From positions 6,136-38,135 of the forward strand of contig APJZ01000004.1 of NCBI GenBank assembly GCA_000387965.1: a stretch of 32,000 nt of DNA. Reading direction: 5' to 3'. Under the pieces are notes generated by a model. That model did not search any database. It was not told the DNA's origin and saw only the letters and a list, made by a program, of their open reading frames with translations. Source of the stretch: Candidatus Nanobsidianus stetteri. Lineage in GTDB: Archaea > Nanobdellota > Nanobdellia > Nanobdellales > Nanobdellaceae. This document shows, one piece after another, positions 3,073 to 25,140 of the stretch (position 1 is the first letter of the stretch; each line of letters starts with the position of its first letter). A program made the translations under genes and the position numbers.

Positions 3073-3705
3073 ATGGCGAACGAAGATTCTATAGGAAAAG
3101 CTCTAACTAGAGTTATTATATATTCAGTAATATTTGTAATAGCCATGGGAATAGTACAGTGGTTCTTCACAGCAGGATTACAAATATTATATAATATGAC
3201 AGGAATTGGAGCAATTTTAGGATTGGAGAATTATTCAATATATGCTATTATCCTTGTATTGATTATATTTGGGTGGTTTGTAATAGTCGCAGTAGCATCA
3301 ATGTTTTATGCAATATTTAAACCAAAGTATGGAGAATCTACAGCTTCTGCAATAAGAAGTTTAATAAAAATTTTAGGAATTGGTGGTCTATTTGCAGGTA
3401 TTGCTGGTGCAGTTGGAGGTGGTGTTGCAGGAGTAGCATTGGGTGGTTTTATTGGTATGGTAATAGGTTTCGCAACACAGCAAATCTTAGGTCAGGCTAT
3501 TGCTGGAATATTCTTATTATTAAGTAGACCGTTTGAAATCGGAGATGTTATAGATGTAGCTGGGGAAACAGATATAAAAGTACTAGATATAAATGCAATG
3601 TTTACAAAAGCATTGAGAACTGATGGAAATATAGTATTAATTCCAAACAATATGATAATTTCACAAAAGATAGTAATAAAAAAGAAAAATAATGAACAGA
3701 AATAA
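3073..3705 (+). CDS. small mechanosensitive ion channel, MscS family
   Basis: N-terminal TM helices and a Gly/Ala-rich pore helix (GIAGAVGGGVAGVALGGFIGMVIGFATQQILGQAIAGIFLLLSRPFEIGDVI). The conserved RPF.vGD motif and beta-domain start (VLDINAMFTKALRTDGNIVLIPNN) are characteristic of MscS. Confidence 0.8.
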   Translation: MANEDSIGKALTRVIIYSVIFVIAMGIVQWFFTAGLQILYNMTGIGAILGLENYSIYAIILVLIIFGWFVIVAVASMFYAIFKPKYGESTASAIRSLIKILGIGGLFAGIAGAVGGGVAGVALGGFIGMVIGFATQQILGQAIAGIFLLLSRPFEIGDVIDVAGETDIKVLDINAMFTKALRTDGNIVLIPNNMIISQKIVIKKKNNEQK

Positions 3706-4304: not shown

Positions 4305-5327
4305 TTAGTTAGAATTATAATTATTAATCATATAGTTTATTAATTCATTAACATATGGATTACTCCATAGTCCGAAAGGATCACCATTAGCTCCATTCCA
4401 ATCATATATTCCAATTATATCTATACCCATTCCATGTAGCTGATTAATTATAGCTTCATAATATTTTATTGTAGCTTGATATCCTTGTTCAGAAGGACCA
4501 TTCCAATATCCCAGACCTTCAGAACTTATATAACCTTCTAAATCTCCATTTCTAAATCCCAATTCACCTATGAAAAATTTAATATTATTTTCATCTGCAA
4601 ATTGTTTATATTGCATAATAATGTTTATCATATATTTATTCATCGAAATATTTCCGTTATTATAAATATAATTTCCATATACTTCTAAACCAATCATATC
4701 CAATTTTATTCCATAATTATTTAACAAATAATTATATAATTCCACTATTCTTGTTGAATTTCCCATATCTACATAATAAAATAAATTTGCTTTTGGTAAA
4801 TAATTTTTCATTAAAGAATAATAATATGCTAACTGCTCTATTGGAGCTTTATCAATTTCACTAAATCCAATAACAATATTTTCTCCTCCATTAGTAATAT
4901 TTGATAAGTATTCTAAAAATTCTCTAATATTTTGATCATATTGTGATAAGTTTGTAATATTATCTCTATTAGTTGTAACAAACAAATTTATATAAATTGG
5001 TTTTTTATTTTTATTATTTTCATATAAATATAATATTTGATCTAAAGAATGTGTATAATTATCATTAAAAGTTACTATAACACCTTCTGTAATGGGGGAA
5101 TTGCTTTGAAAATAAGAATTCAATAGTTTATAAGTTCCATTGCCAGGTCCCCATGGAACATTCCAAAATATATATTGCGGATTATTCAAATTATTTGAAA
5201 TATTTTGATTTAAACTATTATTTATTCCATATTTAAAAATTAATGTTCCTAAAGTAGTTCCCACAATAAATCCAGCCAATCCAAATCCTATTAATTTCAA
5301 AAAACCTCTCCTATCTTTATCTATCAT
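4305..5327 (-). CDS. exported or membrane-anchored protein with a twin-arginine signal; possible TIM-barrel (clan GH-A-like) glycoside hydrolase
   Basis: The N-terminus MIDKDRRGFLKLIGFGLAGFIVGTTLG matches the Tat consensus (RR.FLK plus h-region). The body has alternating beta/alpha character, with FIGELGF (nucleophile-like GE.G strand end), GFSEID and IGIYDWN strand ends. The hydrolase assignment is weak. Confidence 0.6.
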   Translation of the reverse strand: MIDKDRRGFLKLIGFGLAGFIVGTTLGTLIFKYGINNSLNQNISNNLNNPQYIFWNVPWGPGNGTYKLLNSYFQSNSPITEGVIVTFNDNYTHSLDQILYLYENNKNKKPIYINLFVTTNRDNITNLSQYDQNIREFLEYLSNITNGGENIVIGFSEIDKAPIEQLAYYYSLMKNYLPKANLFYYVDMGNSTRIVELYNYLLNNYGIKLDMIGLEVYGNYIYNNGNISMNKYMINIIMQYKQFADENNIKFFIGELGFRNGDLEGYISSEGLGYWNGPSEQGYQATIKYYEAIINQLHGMGIDIIGIYDWNGANGDPFGLWSNPYVNELINYMINNYNSN

Positions 5328-5343
5328 TATTTAATATAAAAAA

Positions 5344-6333
5344 TTACAAGTTCGAAAAAAGAGAAGTACCTTGACTTTGTATTAACACTATATATGTACC
5401 ATAATAATCATTTATTTCATATACTGGATATTGTTGACCTTGTTGACTCTGATAAGTACCTATCTGCTGTACATTTGCAATAGTATCTACATGCAAAATT
5501 CCTCCACTTGATGGGTTTGAATTACCTGGAGTTCCGAGAATATAATCAGCCAAGTTAATGTCATTTCCTACACTATTTACTTGCTGTCCGTCTTGATATA
5601 ATATTATTACACTACCAATACCATTAATCCATTCCCAAAGACTATTTGAATATGGACCTTGATTTGAGGTTGGCATTACTACCATAGCATTTCCATTCAA
5701 TAAATTCTGGAATGCATTATATACATCTTGCCAATCTCTATCCGAAATTACTATATTATAAGGTATTTGTGAATCTGGTAAAATCCACTCACCATTCTGT
5801 AGAATAGCTTGACTTAAACCTGCTCTTCCCAATACTAAATAAACTTTATAATTAGTTCCATACTGTCGATTATAAGCATTTACTGCCGATAAGATATTTC
5901 CTATGTTAATATTTCCATTCGATACATATTTAATAGGAATTTTCATTTGTAATTTTGTGTTCGTAAGATAATCATATACTGTTAGATATGCATTATTGAT
6001 ACCTATTTGTGCACCTGTTAATTTTAAAGGTATAAATTGTTTATTGCTATTTCCAAATAATATTTGCTCCAAACTTTGTGGTTGACTTTGTGGTTGTGTC
6101 GTCGTTGTTGTAGTTGTATTCGTTTGTGTTGTAGTTCCTGTAACTGTTTCTGTAACCGTTGTATTTGATGTATATGTTTCAGTTACTGTAATGGTTACTG
6201 TTTCTGTTGCATTTCCTTCATATATTATTTCATTAGTTTTAGGTGAAGATAAATAACCTCCTACAAATCCTCCAAGAAACCCTGCTCCTGAAATCAATAA
6301 AGCCTTTAGGAAATCTCTTCTAGTGAGCCCCAT
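5344..6333 (-). CDS. exported or membrane-anchored protein with a twin-arginine signal and Thr-rich linker; function unknown
   Basis: MGLTRRDFLKALLISGAGFLGGFVGG is a textbook S/T-RR-x-FLK motif. It is followed by a linker (TETVTITVTETYTSNTTVTETVTGTTTQTNTTTTTTTQPQSQPQS) and a ~230-aa globular domain. It lies 16 nt upstream of the next Tat-signal gene on the same strand. Confidence 0.7.
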   Translation of the reverse strand: MGLTRRDFLKALLISGAGFLGGFVGGYLSSPKTNEIIYEGNATETVTITVTETYTSNTTVTETVTGTTTQTNTTTTTTTQPQSQPQSLEQILFGNSNKQFIPLKLTGAQIGINNAYLTVYDYLTNTKLQMKIPIKYVSNGNINIGNILSAVNAYNRQYGTNYKVYLVLGRAGLSQAILQNGEWILPDSQIPYNIVISDRDWQDVYNAFQNLLNGNAMVVMPTSNQGPYSNSLWEWINGIGSVIILYQDGQQVNSVGNDINLADYILGTPGNSNPSSGGILHVDTIANVQQIGTYQSQQGQQYPVYEINDYYGTYIVLIQSQGTSLFSNL

Positions 6334-19651: not shown

Positions 19652-20374
19652 ATGTATGATTTCTGTTTACCAGATGATAATGAAGAAGAATTAGCAAGTG
19701 AATATTATAAAAATAGGATAAAAAATGTTGTTTTTTGTTATGAAGTCTTTGATAAAAATGATCTAAGATATTTTAAATTAAATAATATCTTGTATCATAA
19801 AAAATTAAACATATTTTATTGTGCCTTAATAAATAATGAAAATTTTAAAAAATCTTTAGAAATTGCAAATGAATTATTCTATTCTGATAAATATTATAAC
19901 GATTTATTATTTATTATTGGAAGAGATTTAAATTATAATGATAAGATTTTGAGTAAATATTTTTTAAATGGATTATTTGATCCAATTAAATATGATAAAA
20001 AATATTATTTTGGAGGAATAAATTATGTAAATATTAAAAGAATAAAAGAAAATAATTTGTCTATTCTTTTTTCAATGAAGAAATTAATTAATGATATTGA
20101 AAAATTTTATACAACTAAAAAATTTTTGGAATTTGCACAAAAGAAATATTTAAATATTCTTATAGGATCTTTTGCTGAAAATAAAGATGAGGTTCCAAAT
20201 AGATATCAAATATATTCTTTTTATAAAGTCTTAGGAATTTATTATAGTTTAAATTATTTAAATAAAATATTTGAGGAACAAATAATTAGGATAAGATTGG
20301 CAAAGAGAAAAGATTATTTTACAAAAGGATTTTATATAATTTCTTATCCATATCAGGATTGTAGAGAATATTAA
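19652..20374 (+). CDS. rnp3: probable RNase P protein component 3 (Rpp30/Rnp3, PHP-like TIM barrel)
   Basis: Length and pattern resemble archaeal Rpp30 as I remember it. MYDFCLP at the N-terminus is like the ..D.hv start. GGINYVNIKRIKENNLSILFSMKKLI ... KKFLEFAQKKYLNILIGSFAENKDEVPNRYQIYSF parallels SGIDHVLA...VAIELNF..LL ... ISTDAEN...I..PYDL. This is a memory-based alignment only. Confidence 0.5.
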   Translation: MYDFCLPDDNEEELASEYYKNRIKNVVFCYEVFDKNDLRYFKLNNILYHKKLNIFYCALINNENFKKSLEIANELFYSDKYYNDLLFIIGRDLNYNDKILSKYFLNGLFDPIKYDKKYYFGGINYVNIKRIKENNLSILFSMKKLINDIEKFYTTKKFLEFAQKKYLNILIGSFAENKDEVPNRYQIYSFYKVLGIYYSLNYLNKIFEEQIIRIRLAKRKDYFTKGFYIISYPYQDCREY

Positions 20375-22401
20375 GGTGGCCAGGGATTTTCAGATCCTGT
20401 AGAAATTGAAGGCATTACACCATTTGGAGGATATGCTCTAGCAACAACCCATTGTATGTATTGATATGAAGCAACACCACCAGTTCCTGCACCAATTTCT
20501 AATGTTGGATATTGATAAGGATTATAATTTAAATTAGAGTATGGATAGTTTCCATAATTTGAATTATATGATAAAGGATACATATCTAATAATGTTAATG
20601 GAACCCATACTTGATTAGAATTATAAATATAATATCCTGTTTGTGCATAAGATGAATTAACAATTAAATATGAATAAACAGTTCCTCCAGATGTTGAGAA
20701 AGATGTTTGATTTAATGTAATATTCGTTATCACAGATTTTAGATATGTAATACCACTTCCATATTCAAATTGTACAAATGTAGATAAATTGGATGTCGGT
20801 GTATATGTACTCACCGTAGATCCGATACTATACGCATAAATTTGCTGACTTGTATTTCCAAATAATGCTATTACATTTGCATGTCCAATACCATTATAAT
20901 ACCATGCCTCTTCAACAATTAATGGTATTTCTGGAATATTCCAATTATTTGGGGGTAAAATATATGTACCTTCACTAGTACCACCATTTAACATTTCAAT
21001 ACCATAAGAAGTCGCTGTAGGAGAAAAAGATCCTGAATAAATATATCTATTCCATCCATCAAATGTATTATTAAAATATCCATACGCTATAAATGTATAA
21101 TTACCATTATCATATCCTGAAATTACCTGAGGAGAAGCACCAACATATGGATAATATTGAGAATAATAGTTTGTATTATAATTTCCAATTGCCATATAAA
21201 TTACAATATTACTATTAGCAGGAATTCCATTTGGTATATTTACCCACCATACATCACAATATGTACTTCCATTAATTAATTGACCTTCATACCATGAATA
21301 AGATAATTGTCCATTATTTGAATTAAAGAACATTACATTTTGTCCATTTGGATTTATTTGATTAAATAATGTTGGATTATTTACATAAGCAAAATTTGAA
21401 CCAATATTAATGCTTCCATTACATATTGCTATATCTTGCTGGAAAGGCTCTGGAGTTGGAATAGGTTGATTATTATATAGTGTTATTGGAACATAATATT
21501 GTATTGATAAATTATTAATTGGCGTACATATTTCATTGCCCAAAGATTCTAAACAAAAATATAAATCATCATTATTATATTGATAATATCCAACAATTTG
21601 CTGACCTGAATAAATTAAACTACTATTAGAAGATGTATTAAAATTATTTCCAAATGATGGTATATTATAATTATCATAATATATATTATTCAAATTAATT
21701 GGACATATATCATTATTAATTATATTTACTGATATAATACTATTATTCAATTGAGCATTTGATATATTTAAAAAGCTCACAGAAATTCCATTCAAAATTT
21801 TCTGAACACTTAAAGATTTTATTTCTCCAGCAATACATTTATAATTATTTAAATATTGAAAAATCACATTTCCTTCCAAATTATATAAATTATTTAAATA
21901 ATTATCATTTATAGCAAATATATTTTGTGGATAAAATATAACATAATATGGTAAATTACCAGTTCCTTCAAATTGATTATTAAAATATGGGTTATATACT
22001 TCATACCCATTAAATATACAGTATCCAGTATTAGAAGATATTATAGAATAATTATTTATTATTTCAAATGCTACAAAATTATTTGCTGCATATGAAGGTA
22101 AGAAATTATAAACATCATCTACTACAATTACATGTGTTGAATTGAAATAATTTGGTACCTGTATAATATTATAAGAACAATTATAATAGACGGTAAATGG
22201 AATTAATGTAGATCCATACAAATTTAATATATTTTCAAATATATTGTTTCCGTATAATAATTTATATATTTCTCCATATTGGGGAAAAGTGTTTGAATAA
22301 AATTGAAATTCTTTATCTAATAAATCTAAGTTAGAAACAAAATAAAATAAAATTAATAATAATACAACGACTGAATATAAATATAATTGACTACGAGCCA
22401 T
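20371..22401 (-). CDS. large Asn/Tyr/Ser-rich surface protein: N-terminal anchor, DUF2341-like domain and concanavalin-A/LamG-like C-terminal domain
   Basis: N-terminus MARSQLYLYSVVVLLLILFYFVSNL. YVPITLYNNQPIPTPEPFQQDIAI...NVMFFNSNNGQLSYSWYEG...VWWVNIPNGIPANSNIVIYMAIGN fits the DUF2341 pattern. The C-terminal ...YIQWVVARAYPPNGVMPS ending is one I associate with Sulfolobales-type surface proteins. Very many N-x-S/T sequons. Confidence 0.8.
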   Translation of the reverse strand: MARSQLYLYSVVVLLLILFYFVSNLDLLDKEFQFYSNTFPQYGEIYKLLYGNNIFENILNLYGSTLIPFTVYYNCSYNIIQVPNYFNSTHVIVVDDVYNFLPSYAANNFVAFEIINNYSIISSNTGYCIFNGYEVYNPYFNNQFEGTGNLPYYVIFYPQNIFAINDNYLNNLYNLEGNVIFQYLNNYKCIAGEIKSLSVQKILNGISVSFLNISNAQLNNSIISVNIINNDICPINLNNIYYDNYNIPSFGNNFNTSSNSSLIYSGQQIVGYYQYNNDDLYFCLESLGNEICTPINNLSIQYYVPITLYNNQPIPTPEPFQQDIAICNGSINIGSNFAYVNNPTLFNQINPNGQNVMFFNSNNGQLSYSWYEGQLINGSTYCDVWWVNIPNGIPANSNIVIYMAIGNYNTNYYSQYYPYVGASPQVISGYDNGNYTFIAYGYFNNTFDGWNRYIYSGSFSPTATSYGIEMLNGGTSEGTYILPPNNWNIPEIPLIVEEAWYYNGIGHANVIALFGNTSQQIYAYSIGSTVSTYTPTSNLSTFVQFEYGSGITYLKSVITNITLNQTSFSTSGGTVYSYLIVNSSYAQTGYYIYNSNQVWVPLTLLDMYPLSYNSNYGNYPYSNLNYNPYQYPTLEIGAGTGGVASYQYIQWVVARAYPPNGVMPSISTGSENPWPP

Positions 22402-24208
22402 ATATAGAAAATCTAGAATATCCTAGGCCATAGGGATAAACTATACTACTACTATATTTATACCCGTTTGGTACCGGATTTACACTAAAATAATTCCAAT
22501 AATTATATAATATTATTGGTATTAATTGATCTGAATAATAAACATTTACAGGATAGCATTGGCTAATATTGATATTTGAAGATAATATATTATCCTGATA
22601 ATCCGGAGGAATTGAATAATCTATTATCAATTGAGAATATGGTTCTACAAAATTTATAGATTGTGGATTATTATATGCCTGCATATTATAATTTGGAATA
22701 TTCTCATATAATATTCCTGTATTTTGATTATAGTTTTTACCATAATAAATTATTACTGGGTTATAATAATTAAAATCTTCTGAATAATATATATTTTCTA
22801 ATTGATTTATTGTTAATGGTTGATTATAAAATGCAATTACATATATATTTCCTAAAAATGTACATTGAGGAGAATACATTGTTGTAGGAGTTCCTAAATA
22901 TATTGTTTCATTTGGTGGATAATATAAATTTAAAGGTTGCAAAGATGGCCAACCAGGGTAAGGTACTAATTGACCATAATATATTCCACTTTGATTTATA
23001 AATCCTCCATAAAATTGTCCGTTACTACTATTATATTCCCAGAAAACAAATACCCATTGATTCATTGGTAAAGTATAATTTGGTAAGTATCCTATAGTAA
23101 CACTTTCATCTATCCCTAAATAATATTGACCATTATTTGGTAAAATTATTTGTCTAAATGTAGAACCTGCATAATCATTTAATCCAGATAAATGAACTAT
23201 TGCACTTACATAATTTTCTCCAGAAGCACATGAAGAAGAATAATAACTATTTATATAAATCCAAGCAACAACTGTTATTGATGTATCTCCAGATAATACA
23301 GAAGGATAATACGAAGAATTTGTTAAATTAAAATATTGATTATTATTTGTAAAAGATATAACATTAGATTGATCTAAGCATTGAGGAGAAATATATAATG
23401 TTTCCCAACTAAATGGGAATATAACATATGGTACTAATTGAGCAGGTAAATTATTCACCAATTGATAATTGTTTGTTAAATTTAAATAATTAAAATTATT
23501 ATTTTCAGCTCTAAATAATATAATTATTGGTTGCGTATAACCGTTAGGTAAATTTAATGATATATTTACCATAGGAATATATCCGTTAGATGTACTAACA
23601 TATGATACATTTAAATATTGGATTTGTATTGGGTATAAATCAATATTATATGCATAAAATGAATATGGATCTACAGTATAATTAATAAAATTTGTTACAT
23701 TTGTTAAATTTAAATATATAGACAAATTACTAGAAGAATAACTAGATATTATTATCCCATACCAATCATCACTTGATGCAATATTTCCACATAAATTTCC
23801 TTGAGAATTATATATTAAGAAAAAGTTGTTAACTTGTCCATTTATATTTAATGAATATAATAAATTGTTTCCTAGATATGGAAATGGAAATAAAAATTCA
23901 TAACATGTTGAATTATAAGTATTATAAAAGTTTAAACTATAATCTACAGTTTGTTTTAAATCATAATAATTAAAATAACCTGATAACATACTATTATATA
24001 TTGAAGCTAGTACATCAAATTGATTTGTCTCTAAAAAACTTAGAAATTTATCATTATAAGTATTTGCTAGGGCGGTATACAATGTATATTTTTTATTAAA
24101 TATATTTATGTAATATGAAGGATTTTGAGGAAATTGTAAATTTGTTAAGAATATTAATATTAAAGATACAACTAATATTATTTCTACTAAATAATTAAAT
24201 GATCTCAT
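22391..24208 (-). CDS. large Asn/Tyr/Ser-rich surface protein with an N-terminal anchor and a LamG (Laminin_G_3)-like lectin domain
   Basis: The N-terminus MRSFNYLVEIILVVSLILIFLTNL is homologous to that of the downstream gene. LamG-like landmarks: ITVVAWIYINS, NQWVFVFWEYNSSNGQFYGGFIN, ETIYLGTP, FLGNIYVIAFYNQPLTINQLENIY. It overlaps the next gene by 11 nt, forming an operon. Confidence 0.8.
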   Translation of the reverse strand: MRSFNYLVEIILVVSLILIFLTNLQFPQNPSYYINIFNKKYTLYTALANTYNDKFLSFLETNQFDVLASIYNSMLSGYFNYYDLKQTVDYSLNFYNTYNSTCYEFLFPFPYLGNNLLYSLNINGQVNNFFLIYNSQGNLCGNIASSDDWYGIIISSYSSSNLSIYLNLTNVTNFINYTVDPYSFYAYNIDLYPIQIQYLNVSYVSTSNGYIPMVNISLNLPNGYTQPIIILFRAENNNFNYLNLTNNYQLVNNLPAQLVPYVIFPFSWETLYISPQCLDQSNVISFTNNNQYFNLTNSSYYPSVLSGDTSITVVAWIYINSYYSSSCASGENYVSAIVHLSGLNDYAGSTFRQIILPNNGQYYLGIDESVTIGYLPNYTLPMNQWVFVFWEYNSSNGQFYGGFINQSGIYYGQLVPYPGWPSLQPLNLYYPPNETIYLGTPTTMYSPQCTFLGNIYVIAFYNQPLTINQLENIYYSEDFNYYNPVIIYYGKNYNQNTGILYENIPNYNMQAYNNPQSINFVEPYSQLIIDYSIPPDYQDNILSSNINISQCYPVNVYYSDQLIPIILYNYWNYFSVNPVPNGYKYSSSIVYPYGLGYSRFSIYGS

Positions 24209-24231
24209 ATACCTATTATGAAAAAAATAAG

Positions 24232-24239
24232 TTTATATA
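24232..24239. promoter_or_regulatory. single TATA box (TTTATATA) shared by divergent genes 22391-24208 (-) and 24262-25140 (+)
   Basis: The 53-nt spacer contains one TATA-like box centred ~27 nt from both start codons. A-rich BRE-like tracts flank it on each strand (AAAAAAATAAG-TTTATATA-CCTTTTT). Confidence 0.5.
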
Positions 24240-24261
24240 CCTTTTTAAGAATATGTAAAAA

Positions 24262-25140
24262 ATGAGCATATTAATGAAAATCTTGTCTTTTATAGAAAAA
24301 AATTATAAGAAGTTTCTAATAATTTCCATATCAATATTTGTAATATTTGTTGGAATAATATTATTTAATTACTTTAAGTACGGATATATAATTAATAAAT
24401 CTATTACAATTTCCGGAGGTTATGTGACATTAATTAATAATAATTATCATATAACAAATACAGAAATACAAAATGTGTTGAATCAAATGAATATAACGGA
24501 TTATGTATTATATAATACACCAAATATTATTTATATTGAATCGGAAAAGCAAATTAATGAAACATTATTAATTAATTTATTAAATCAAGATTATAATATC
24601 AAACTATTGCCTACGGATATATCAATACAACAATATAGTTCTTTGGTAGGAAATCTTATATTTAATCAATTTTTATTCTTTGTAATTTTAGCAATGATAC
24701 TTACAGCATTTATAATATTCATAGCATTTAGAGCTTCTAAGATTACTTTAAATATAATATCTACAATATTATTTGATGTTATTGGATTATTAGCAATATT
24801 ATCTATAACAAAATATCCTATAGGAGCAAATGGATTTATTGGAATGTTAATGATTTTAGGATTTGCAATTGATAATAATGTAGTATTATCAACAAACATA
24901 GTAAAGGAAAAGGATAAACCATTTATTGAAAGAGTAAGAATGTCTTTTAGAGTTGGAATGCTAATGGAAATTATTGCATTATATACATTACTTTTATTAT
25001 ATTTTATAGTTCCAGAACCATCAGTTGATGAATTTGCATTTGTATTATCTGTTGCAATAATATTAGATTTATTATATTATCTTATTGGAAATATACCATT
25101 ATATAAATATTTTGAAGTTAAAAAAGAACAAGAAAGTTAG
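24262..25140 (+). CDS. secF: SecD/SecF-family protein-export membrane protein, most likely SecF
   Basis: One N-terminal TM helix, a ~100-aa external domain, then five or six TM helices. The conserved segment is MLMILGFAIDNNVVLSTNIVKEK (compare G.s.D..Iv..dRi.E). The ~290-aa size fits SecF. No SecD gene is adjacent. Confidence 0.55.
   Translation: MSILMKILSFIEKNYKKFLIISISIFVIFVGIILFNYFKYGYIINKSITISGGYVTLINNNYHITNTEIQNVLNQMNITDYVLYNTPNIIYIESEKQINETLLINLLNQDYNIKLLPTDISIQQYSSLVGNLIFNQFLFFVILAMILTAFIIFIAFRASKITLNIISTILFDVIGLLAILSITKYPIGANGFIGMLMILGFAIDNNVVLSTNIVKEKDKPFIERVRMSFRVGMLMEIIALYTLLLLYFIVPEPSVDEFAFVLSVAIILDLLYYLIGNIPLYKYFEVKKEQES

Follow-up and report, generated by a model that had tools for sequence, protein, structure and literature searches.

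An overlapping gene pair conserved in Nanopusillaceae carries a mosaic, predicted lectin-type cassette

We analysed a 32,000-nucleotide (nt) stretch of DNA from the archaeon Candidatus Nanobsidianus stetteri (contig APJZ01000004.1, positions 6,136 to 38,135; hereafter the window, in whose coordinates positions are given) and describe two overlapping genes on its minus strand, here called geneA and geneB. The pair is conserved in Nanopusillaceae, and geneB contains a segment with a predicted L-type-lectin-like fold that differs among relatives as a mosaic cassette. With moderate confidence, we explain the two products as a lineage-specific surface pair: geneB would display a lectin-type module that can be exchanged, probably to recognise the surface of a partner cell. 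New here are the conserved overlapping two-gene unit, a lineage leader pattern and the cassette mosaicism; neither the operon structure of geneA and geneB nor the cassette variation was found in the literature searched.

A conserved operon of two real genes

The two genes and their junction are as follows (the basis of each assignment in brackets; dN/dS is the ratio of non-synonymous to synonymous substitution rates).

22391..24208, minus strand: geneA, first operon gene, a 605-amino-acid (aa) conserved N-terminally anchored protein (open reading frame, orthologs, dN/dS)
20371..22401, minus strand: geneB, second operon gene, a 676-aa modular protein (open reading frame, full-length orthologs)
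22391..22401, minus strand: 11-nt overlap of the geneA stop and geneB start, ATGGCTCGTAG (sequence; kept in relatives)

Both open reading frames and their overlap lie exactly where the first-pass annotation had placed them; its term "giant" for the products is an overstatement. Overall, that annotation is largely right in its observations, and its interpretation is partly supported. geneA and geneB are real genes on which purifying selection acts. Against close relatives their dN/dS is 0.15-0.19 (0.15-0.16 for geneA alone), equal to that of the neighbouring SecF-like gene and of a 240-aa neighbour gene. G+C content is about 23% throughout the window, and because the genome is so AT-rich, open reading frames of this length are not due to chance. 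Proteins encoded in the window are 85-93% identical to those of Candidatus Nanopusillus (hot-spring metagenomes) and Nanopusillus acidilobi.

Among 5.8 billion proteins there are exactly 20 homologs of geneA, each from a different genome and every one from Nanopusillaceae, at 58-93% identity (including Nps_01540 of N. acidilobi, YN1_6950 and the Nanobdella aerobiophila ortholog). A search with the family profile added none. Full-length orthologs of geneB are encoded by Nanopusillus, Nanobsidianus, YN1 and Nanobdella. The gene order, with the SecF-like gene divergent from geneA, geneB following and the 240-aa gene convergent with it, recurs unchanged in Nanobdella MJ1, in YN1 and on several metagenomic contigs, and the synteny of SecF, geneA and geneB is fixed across every Nanopusillaceae genome examined. 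An identical 11-nt overlap is found at four further loci (L001, L003, L058, L059), and the junction TATGGCTCGTAGTCAATTATAT is nucleotide-identical in Nanobdella MJ1 and YN1, across three genera. This identity at the nucleotide level fits translational coupling, and the two genes are probably coupled in this way. The operon is specific to Nanopusillaceae, and its transcript is probably leaderless.

As first noted, both proteins are rich in Asn (14-15%), Tyr (12-13%) and Ser (9-10%). Lys makes up only about 1% of their residues, versus 9-20% in cytoplasmic neighbour proteins. Judged from sequence, this composition is a signature of proteins exported in a hot, acidic habitat, and with an N-terminal hydrophobic helix in addition, both proteins look extracytoplasmic. 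The very many N-x-S/T sequons reported for them (15 and 17) do amount to a high density (2.5 per 100 aa versus about 0.5 in neighbours), but composition-matched shuffles yield 11.8 and 13.5 (z = 1.1). Sequon enrichment is therefore rejected, and the count is no independent signal because composition accounts for it.

Domain structure of geneB

The geneB protein can be divided into five segments, assigned from orthologs, hidden Markov models (HMMs) and a structural model whose confidence is given as pLDDT (predicted local distance difference test).

22327..22401, minus strand: leader and hydrophobic helix, aa 1-25, M-[AV]-R-S-Q-L-Y-L-Y... (conserved in orthologs; model)
21505..22326, minus strand: ortholog-specific conserved region, aa 26-299 (85-96% pairwise identity)
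21097..21504, minus strand: first part of the module, aa 300-435, DUF2341-type, PITLYNNQ..PFQQDIAICNG ... YYPYVG (HMM; pLDDT 71-85)
20467..21096, minus strand: hypervariable L-type-lectin-like cassette, aa 436-645 (model; ortholog comparison)
20374..20466, minus strand: conserved tail, aa 646-676, ..WVVARAYPPNGVMPSISTGSENPWPP (invariant residues)

The region aa 26-299 is missing from paralogs, is modelled at pLDDT below 50 and had no family match in a Pfam search. DUF2341-like and ConA-like domains had been proposed for the mature part of this protein. The window protein itself stays below the DUF2341 threshold (PF10102, aa 352-410, 13.6 bits, E 0.093; threshold 23.4), but its orthologs P0030 (26.4 bits) and P0036 (27.9 bits) exceed this cut-off, and relatives found by profile and the model also back the assignment. 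A profile of the C-terminal module retrieved 667 cluster representatives among 1.84 billion, many of them long multi-module proteins of other organisms; its matches include P0233, P0257 and P0275 (E 8.5e-18 to 4.5e-13), which match DUF2341 with E values of 1e-20, 1e-11 and 8e-11.

The AlphaFold model of geneB is confident over aa 300-656, with pLDDT 75-95 at aa 437-656. Foldseek ranks ERGIC-53/LMAN1, VIP36, Emp46p, legume lectins and the lectin domain 7elv of M. jannaschii at the top (E 9e-8 to 5e-5), with target-normalised template modelling (TM) scores of about 0.5-0.7 over some 250 aligned columns, and there are 107 PDB matches at E <= 1e-3. Foldseek reports no query coordinates; we infer that the lectin match sits on the segment aa 436-645. 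Comparison of the geneB family profile with PDB sequences gave nothing meaningful.

In the tail, residues R655, P658, P659, N660, M663 and P664 are invariant in orthologs, and the motif [YL]PPNGxMP recurs in most of the distant relatives of the module. The protein had been said to end in ARAYPPNGVMPS; this motif in fact comprises residues 653-665, with ISTGSENPWPP following.

The hypervariable cassette

Pairwise comparison of geneB orthologs gives 85-96% identity over aa 1-435 and only 35-50% over aa 436-645, while geneA is uniform at 70-85%. Against the closest ortholog (P0001, locus L057), the window protein is 98% identical over aa 26-299, 100% over aa 300-435 and 79% in the cassette. The corresponding dN and dS are 0.008 and 0.096 for aa 1-299 and 0.141 and 0.315 for the cassette, i.e., dS is raised about threefold and dN about seventeenfold over the flank, with a dN/dS of about 0.45 in the cassette. 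Against orthologs P0028-P0036, identity is 91-94% over aa 26-299 and 24-31% in the cassette.

The window cassette is as similar to the cassettes of paralogous pilin fusions (72-81% identity) as to those of orthologs, and that of P0001 is nearer to a Nanobsidianus pilin fusion (82%) than to its window ortholog (80%). Unrelated or very divergent cassettes are found in P0032 (from a metagenome-assembled genome of N. acidilobi; strain 7A has the same type) and in Nanobdella, and divergent cassettes are bounded by the conserved flanks YYPYVG..YDNG and PPNGVMPS..WPP. The window, Nanobsidianus and YN1 have one cassette type, and N. acidilobi and Nanobdella each have another. Against the distant YN1 ortholog, all segments of geneB are about equally diverged.

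In the cassette dS is raised as well as dN, the boundaries are sharp and the similarities incongruent, all of which points to import of sequence via recombination or gene conversion among paralogs. The comparisons indicate cassette mosaicism by recombination, for which local mutation alone would be insufficient.

Two other sources of variation were rejected. No reverse transcriptase domain was found in the window and no repeat of the cassette between 19000 and 25500; a diversity-generating retroelement is rejected given this lack of reverse transcriptase and template repeat, and since replacement is in blocks rather than by adenine-specific substitution. A viral origin or reservoir of the cassette is rejected in that no relative was found on viral contigs.

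The module in other proteins

The C-terminal 54% of geneB (PITLYNNQ.. to ..RAYPPNGVMPS..) recurs at about 70% identity in hundreds of Nanopusillus proteins with differing front ends. We distinguished three kinds (here and below a slash stands after the leader).

Pilin-type: MKS/ISPIIA.... (P0089 and P0055 match TIGR02537 above cut-off; UpsA model NF046073 at E 1e-18, below cut-off)
Sec-type: proteins of 800-1050 aa with a C-terminal anchor
Other leaders: for example MRLQSE.. and MKLTPP...

Because the pilin-type proteins match pilin models, true pilin-lectin fusions exist in these genomes. The 606-kb genome of N. acidilobi has at least six loci with a geneB-type module. geneB is thus the member of this family that lies in a conserved operon, behind a 300-residue domain of its own.

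Fusions with an UpsA-like pilin N-domain in Nanopusillus and Nanobsidianus number about 34 among the 120 homologs listed (e.g., L012, L014, L018); no description of them was found in the literature searched. A three-gene cluster also recurs (L056 1482-4647, in YN1; similar at L049, L050, L011, L024 and L033), in which genes for a 159-aa protein of the archaellin family (PF01917) and for a 152-aa N-anchored protein accompany that of a 743-aa lectin-module protein starting MRLQSE... From its gene content, it may be a second appendage-linked setting of the module. Outside Nanopusillaceae, proteins of 500-2700 aa (P0233, P0257, P0229, P0265, P0275 and others) contain one to several copies of the PFQQ...YPPNGVMPS module. 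Most of these distant relatives could not be assigned to a taxon, the one named being Micrarchaeia. In many of them the leader is of the canonical archaeal class III type (..[KR]-x-Q-S-A-x-E-Y-L..), so that pilin-anchored DUF2341 proteins seem to form a family widespread among acidophilic archaea.

From a Sulfolobales-like flavour of the domains, the pair had been suggested to come from a crenarchaeal host or to mimic one. The G+C content is that of the genome, geneA has no homologs outside Nanopusillaceae even by profile, and module relatives occur in Micrarchaeia; with no compositional anomaly, an origin from Sulfolobales or the host is rejected, and mimicry finds no support. A peptide-pattern scan of genome contigs likewise hit Nanopusillaceae only (the patterns were exact, and distant relatives could escape them). 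The simplest account of the "Sulfolobales flavour" is that acid-exposed proteins have such a composition.

geneA

Two features can be assigned in the geneA protein.

24134..24208, minus strand: leader and hydrophobic helix, aa 1-25, M-[RK]-[STA]-F-N-Y-L-[VI]-E-I-I-L... (ortholog alignment; model)
22814..23356, minus strand: probable LamG/ConA-like beta-sandwich, aa ~285-465 (sub-threshold HMM; weak model)

The LamG-like domain first ascribed to this protein falls below the Pfam gathering threshold (Laminin_G_3, PF13385, aa 290-400, 16.5 bits, E 0.0097; threshold 27.6), but a sub-threshold signal recurs in 11 of the 19 orthologs (E <= 0.1, the best 9.4e-5), none of those examined reaching the cut-off. 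The geneA model has a mean pLDDT of 48.9, with beta strands in aa 350-420 at 66-80. Foldseek searches from this poor model gave no match with E < 1e-3, and the weak matches (E >= 3e-3) are mostly lectins and neurexin LNS domains. Nothing meaningful came from a comparison of the geneA family profile with PDB sequences. The name "family U32 unassigned peptidase", which one source gives to the Nanobdella ortholog, is rejected, as it has no HMM support.

Leaders and N-terminal helices

The N-termini had been quoted correctly, and the Glu in the helix of the 605-aa protein is Glu9, invariant in 19 of 19 orthologs, as are F4, Y6, L7, I10, I11 and L12. Predicted models of both proteins have a helix at aa 2-23. 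The two anchors were initially taken to be homologous. A common origin is rejected: hhalign aligns only aa 2-21 (E 0.28, probability 0.2%), and the BLASTP match (E 0.011) runs over low-complexity helices. The published annotation gives one transmembrane helix and no signal peptide.

Both proteins have the form of a class III signal, a short charged leader ending in [KR]-[GAS] directly before a hydrophobic helix of about 20 aa. Across 352 kb of loci from Nanopusillaceae, four protein groups are marked by M-[KR]-[ST] directly before a hydrophobic helix, which in most cases has a Glu close to its start.

Group 1: the UpsA-like pilin fusions
Group 2: the 159-aa archaellin-family protein, MKS/QFGTIIVEIIL (PF01917, 37 bits, above cut-off)
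Group 3: 228- and 231-aa proteins right after TadC/T2SSF genes, MRS/QSWIE and MKS/QHWIE
Group 4: geneA and geneB themselves

The geneA leader has VEIIL in common with that of the archaellin-family protein. At the group 3 loci (L031 664-2627 and L044 786-2740), the TadC/T2SSF gene (E 2e-13 and 1.5e-14) is followed by the overlapping 228- or 231-aa gene, and with their short lineage leader and a Glu at +5 these proteins look like minor-pilin candidates. The leader patterns favour a pilin-like reading of the pair, especially of geneA.

A prepilin peptidase is not annotated in the published N. acidilobi gene table, and a crude motif scan of the same 352 kb found only TadC. We infer that such a peptidase is present from the expressed archaellum.

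Promoter region and neighbouring genes

Upstream of geneA lie the following.

24209..24261, no strand: divergent intergenic region of 53 nt with a central TATA-like box, TATATAAA, at 24232-24239 (sequence)
24262..25140, plus strand: SecF-like gene, divergent neighbour outside the operon (PF02355, E 9.8e-16)

The TATA-like box is 22-23 nt, or about 27 nt in a second figure, from the start codons of geneA and of the SecF-like gene and is conserved in Nanobdella and YN1. It stands midway between the two starts and is near-palindromic (TATATAAA / TTTATATA). Divergent co-promotion with SecF, as first proposed, is made plausible by this conserved central box; a single bidirectional promoter may serve two leaderless genes.

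The SecF-like neighbour, 53 nt from geneA, is confirmed by its PF02355 match. NCBIfam SecF models match it at 1e-21, below cut-offs (77 bits versus 282), and with scores so far under these cut-offs it is a divergent SecF. It has no adjacent SecD, and the next gene is an archease on the opposite strand. Since the entire region is syntenic, the adjacency of SecF and geneA need not be functional.

On its other side, geneB shares 4 nt (20371-20374) with the convergent 240-aa gene (19652..20374, plus strand), an overlap also present in L001, L003 and L057-L059. With the stop codons of the two genes overlapping, there is no space for a terminator. The surroundings are housekeeping in character, as noted at first (Ser- and Phe-tRNA synthetases, RIO kinase, archease, S15, DHH/Cdc45-like proteins, POR). 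Elsewhere in the window are two adjacent exported-type proteins of 340 and 329 aa (4305-5327 and 5344-6333, both minus strand), with twin-arginine-like leaders (MIDKDRRGFLKLIG.. and MGLTRRDFLKALL..) and no Pfam family match. For the relative Nanobdella, its preprint lists Sec genes only.

Function and alternative explanations

We predict that Sec would insert both proteins. They would then remain anchored through the N-terminal helix; alternatively, a prepilin peptidase would cut them behind M-(A)-R-S, and they would become minor or tip subunits of a type IV filament. The cassette of geneB would bind glycans of the partner surface, most likely the host S-layer, and exchange of the cassette would shift binding specificity. 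geneA is the conserved single-copy partner of geneB, probably with a LamG-like sandwich, and might form a complex with it. The attachment role put forward in the first-pass annotation is a reasonable prediction, matching a proposal for other lectin-like proteins of this organism family (Kato 2023 preprint). The host surface is labelled by ConA and DBA (PMC4935971), and Nanoarchaeota populations show an excess of non-synonymous single-nucleotide polymorphisms (SNPs) in hypothetical surface proteins (PMC6142677).

In a bolder form, which we think unlikely, host specificity in Nanopusillaceae would be determined by the cassette (aa 436-645), gene-converted from a genomic reservoir of paralogous lectin modules to which the pilin-lectin fusions belong; geneA and geneB would form a minor-pilin-like complex at a tip or contact site, and cassette types would track hosts.

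Several results weigh against a surface pair that recognises partner cells, or against its filament variant. The L-type lectin/ConA-like fold of the geneB module is that of a predicted structure, and the likely LamG-like sandwich of geneA comes from sub-threshold HMM matches and a poor model. A class III signal, the alternative raised for these N-termini at the outset, is plausible given the lineage leaders, but neither protein matches the pilin/archaellin N-terminal HMMs (TIGR02537, PF07790, PF01917) even at E <= 10, and no pilus or archaellum machinery (assembly ATPase, TadC/FlaJ platform, prepilin peptidase) was found among the genes of the window, nor at the syntenic loci of Nanobdella and YN1. 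The Pfam negative for signal peptides is weak because canonical-looking ..LQSAxEYL.. control leaders likewise go undetected. The Arg-Ser codons of geneB (CGT AGT) contain the stop codon of geneA; conservation of Arg-Ser is therefore confounded by the gene overlap and is not independent evidence of a cleavage site.

Orthologs of geneA and geneB were not detected in the N. acidilobi proteome table. Proteins with about 1% Lys are poor tryptic targets, so this non-detection is weak evidence; the authors of that study state that Lys/Arg-poor surface proteins escape tryptic proteomics (PMC4935971). In cultured N. acidilobi 7A, whose genome is complete, geneB is split in its cassette by a +1 frameshift, where one additional T follows ..TCAATGGGTT. 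By tblastn, aa 1-481 fall in frame 1 and aa 482-653 in frame 2 (L028, CP010514 271178-278240, locus ~3540-3550), which probably explains the separate entries Nps_01545 and Nps_01550. Either 7A carries a true pseudogene or its assembly is wrong at this point; a real frameshift would mean that stable co-culture does not require an intact cassette.

A frameshifted cassette that attachment can do without also fits a role of the pair as an envelope scaffold, which we regard as doubtful. Here, geneA and geneB would be type II membrane-anchored proteins under the symbiont's S-layer, holding its own glycosylated S-layer or appendage bases, and would not be host adhesins. ArlF and ArlG, which anchor the archaellum to the S-layer, offer an analogy. 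Such a role agrees with an N-terminal helix that has no detectable signal-peptidase or pilin HMM signature and is annotated as one transmembrane helix without signal peptide, with the strictly single-copy, conserved state of geneA and of aa 1-435 of geneB, with the resemblance of the geneA helix to that of the small archaellin-family protein, and with a glycosylated surface of Nanopusillus itself, which binds WGA (PMC4935971). However, a buried structural role leaves the hypervariable, recombining cassette unexplained, and genuine pilin-type proteins display the module too.

That one or both products are extracellular enzymes remodelling the envelope of the host or symbiont, either a ConA-fold glycoside hydrolase or lyase or an acid peptidase of eqolisin/thermopsin type, seems to us improbable. 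The ConA-like superfamily does contain glucanases and glutamic peptidases, scytalidoglutamic peptidase 2ifw (E 0.011) and alpha-mannosidase II are among the weak Foldseek matches of geneA, GH43-associated beta-sandwiches are among those of geneB, the unsupported U32 label points the same way, and pectin-lyase-like and thermopsin-like surface proteins are proposed for Nanobdella. No enzyme family, however, exceeds threshold in Pfam or NCBIfam, the best matches of geneB are non-enzymatic L-type lectins, the geneA model is too poor for fold inference, and wholesale replacement of a cassette is atypical of a catalytic domain.

We give little credence to diversification of the cassette as an escape of exposed target proteins, such as receptors, from nanoarchaeal viruses or host defences, with the lectin fold merely a tolerant scaffold: the mosaicism, the dN/dS of about 0.45 and the SNP excess in surface proteins (PMC6142677) would suit it, but no related module occurs on viral contigs, grafting of the module onto pilins is an adhesin architecture (PMC9934059), and escape is compatible with partner recognition rather than exclusive of it.

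To our knowledge, no experiment has yet identified an adhesin by which nanoarchaea recognise and hold their specific hosts. The operon is conserved in all three cultivated systems of Nanopusillaceae (N. acidilobi-Acidilobus, Nanobdella-Metallosphaera and YN1-Sulfurisphaera), and the lectin-like cassette differs among cultivated systems and natural strains, which makes it a concrete, testable candidate for host specificity. Proteins of this type would be missed by trypsin-based proteomics and by surveys based on signal peptides. If they are ordinary envelope components, the result is a routine annotation improvement for two hypothetical genes.

Comparison with known systems

By analogy, the nearest characterised counterpart is PilC of Streptococcus sanguinis (PMC9934059). 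[quoted passage not shown] Shared with it are a short hydrophobic N-terminal moiety, large beta-sandwich modules ending in a ConA-superfamily fold (predicted for geneB) and a co-encoded partner that could stabilise the geneB product, and Nanopusillus paralogs are true pilin-lectin fusions. Unlike PilC, geneA and geneB have no pilin HMM match and lie outside a pilus locus, and their leader is an archaeal M-(A)-R-S rather than the bacterial G/F..E motif; for the pair, cleavage, filament incorporation and glycan binding are predictions.

Among archaea, two large DUF2341 proteins in type IV pilus loci (arCOG03508 and others) are predicted tip adhesins by analogy to PilY1 (Makarova et al., 2016, PMC4858521). 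Compared by description, these too are large archaeal DUF2341 proteins, and an adhesin role is a prediction in both cases; here, only geneB has DUF2341, and the pair is confined to Nanopusillaceae and lies among housekeeping genes beside SecF. L-type lectins are the best structural matches of the predicted geneB model, but sequence identity to them is 6-14% with no sequence-level PDB match, and in geneB the fold forms part of a larger module of DUF2341 type. In Sulfolobales, species-specific cell aggregation is mediated by Ups pili (UpsA/UpsB; PMC11823120). Paralogs of the geneB module carry an UpsA-like N-domain, and pilus-borne recognition of another archaeal cell surface would be a common theme; it is these paralogs, rather than geneA or geneB, that resemble UpsA, which itself lacks a lectin module, and there is no ups-type locus in the window.

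Lectin-like surface proteins of Nanobdella aerobiophila (MJ1_0179 and others) are proposed to act in host recognition (Kato et al. preprint, 10.1101/2023.10.27.564410). They come from the same organism family and resemble the pair in predicted architecture, with an N-terminal transmembrane helix, a ConA-like sandwich and many sequons, and in proposed role. The passages searched do not mention orthologs of geneA or geneB, and as described there the study covered only proteins with detectable signal peptides.

For the cassette, a parallel is adhesin variation driven by gene conversion, as at Neisseria pilE/pilS. Both have a conserved expressed locus, a variable segment resembling sequences elsewhere in the genome, and conserved flanks that possibly guide recombination. 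They differ in that the donors for geneB would be intact paralogs rather than silent cassettes, no recombination machinery or guide sequence was found, and the evidence for geneB is comparative only.

Likeness to PilC, to the DUF2341 tip-adhesin candidates and to MJ1_0179 places geneA and geneB in a known kind. Rather than being a system of a new kind, the pair joins the candidate adhesins with lectin modules, an established class, as a member specific to this lineage.

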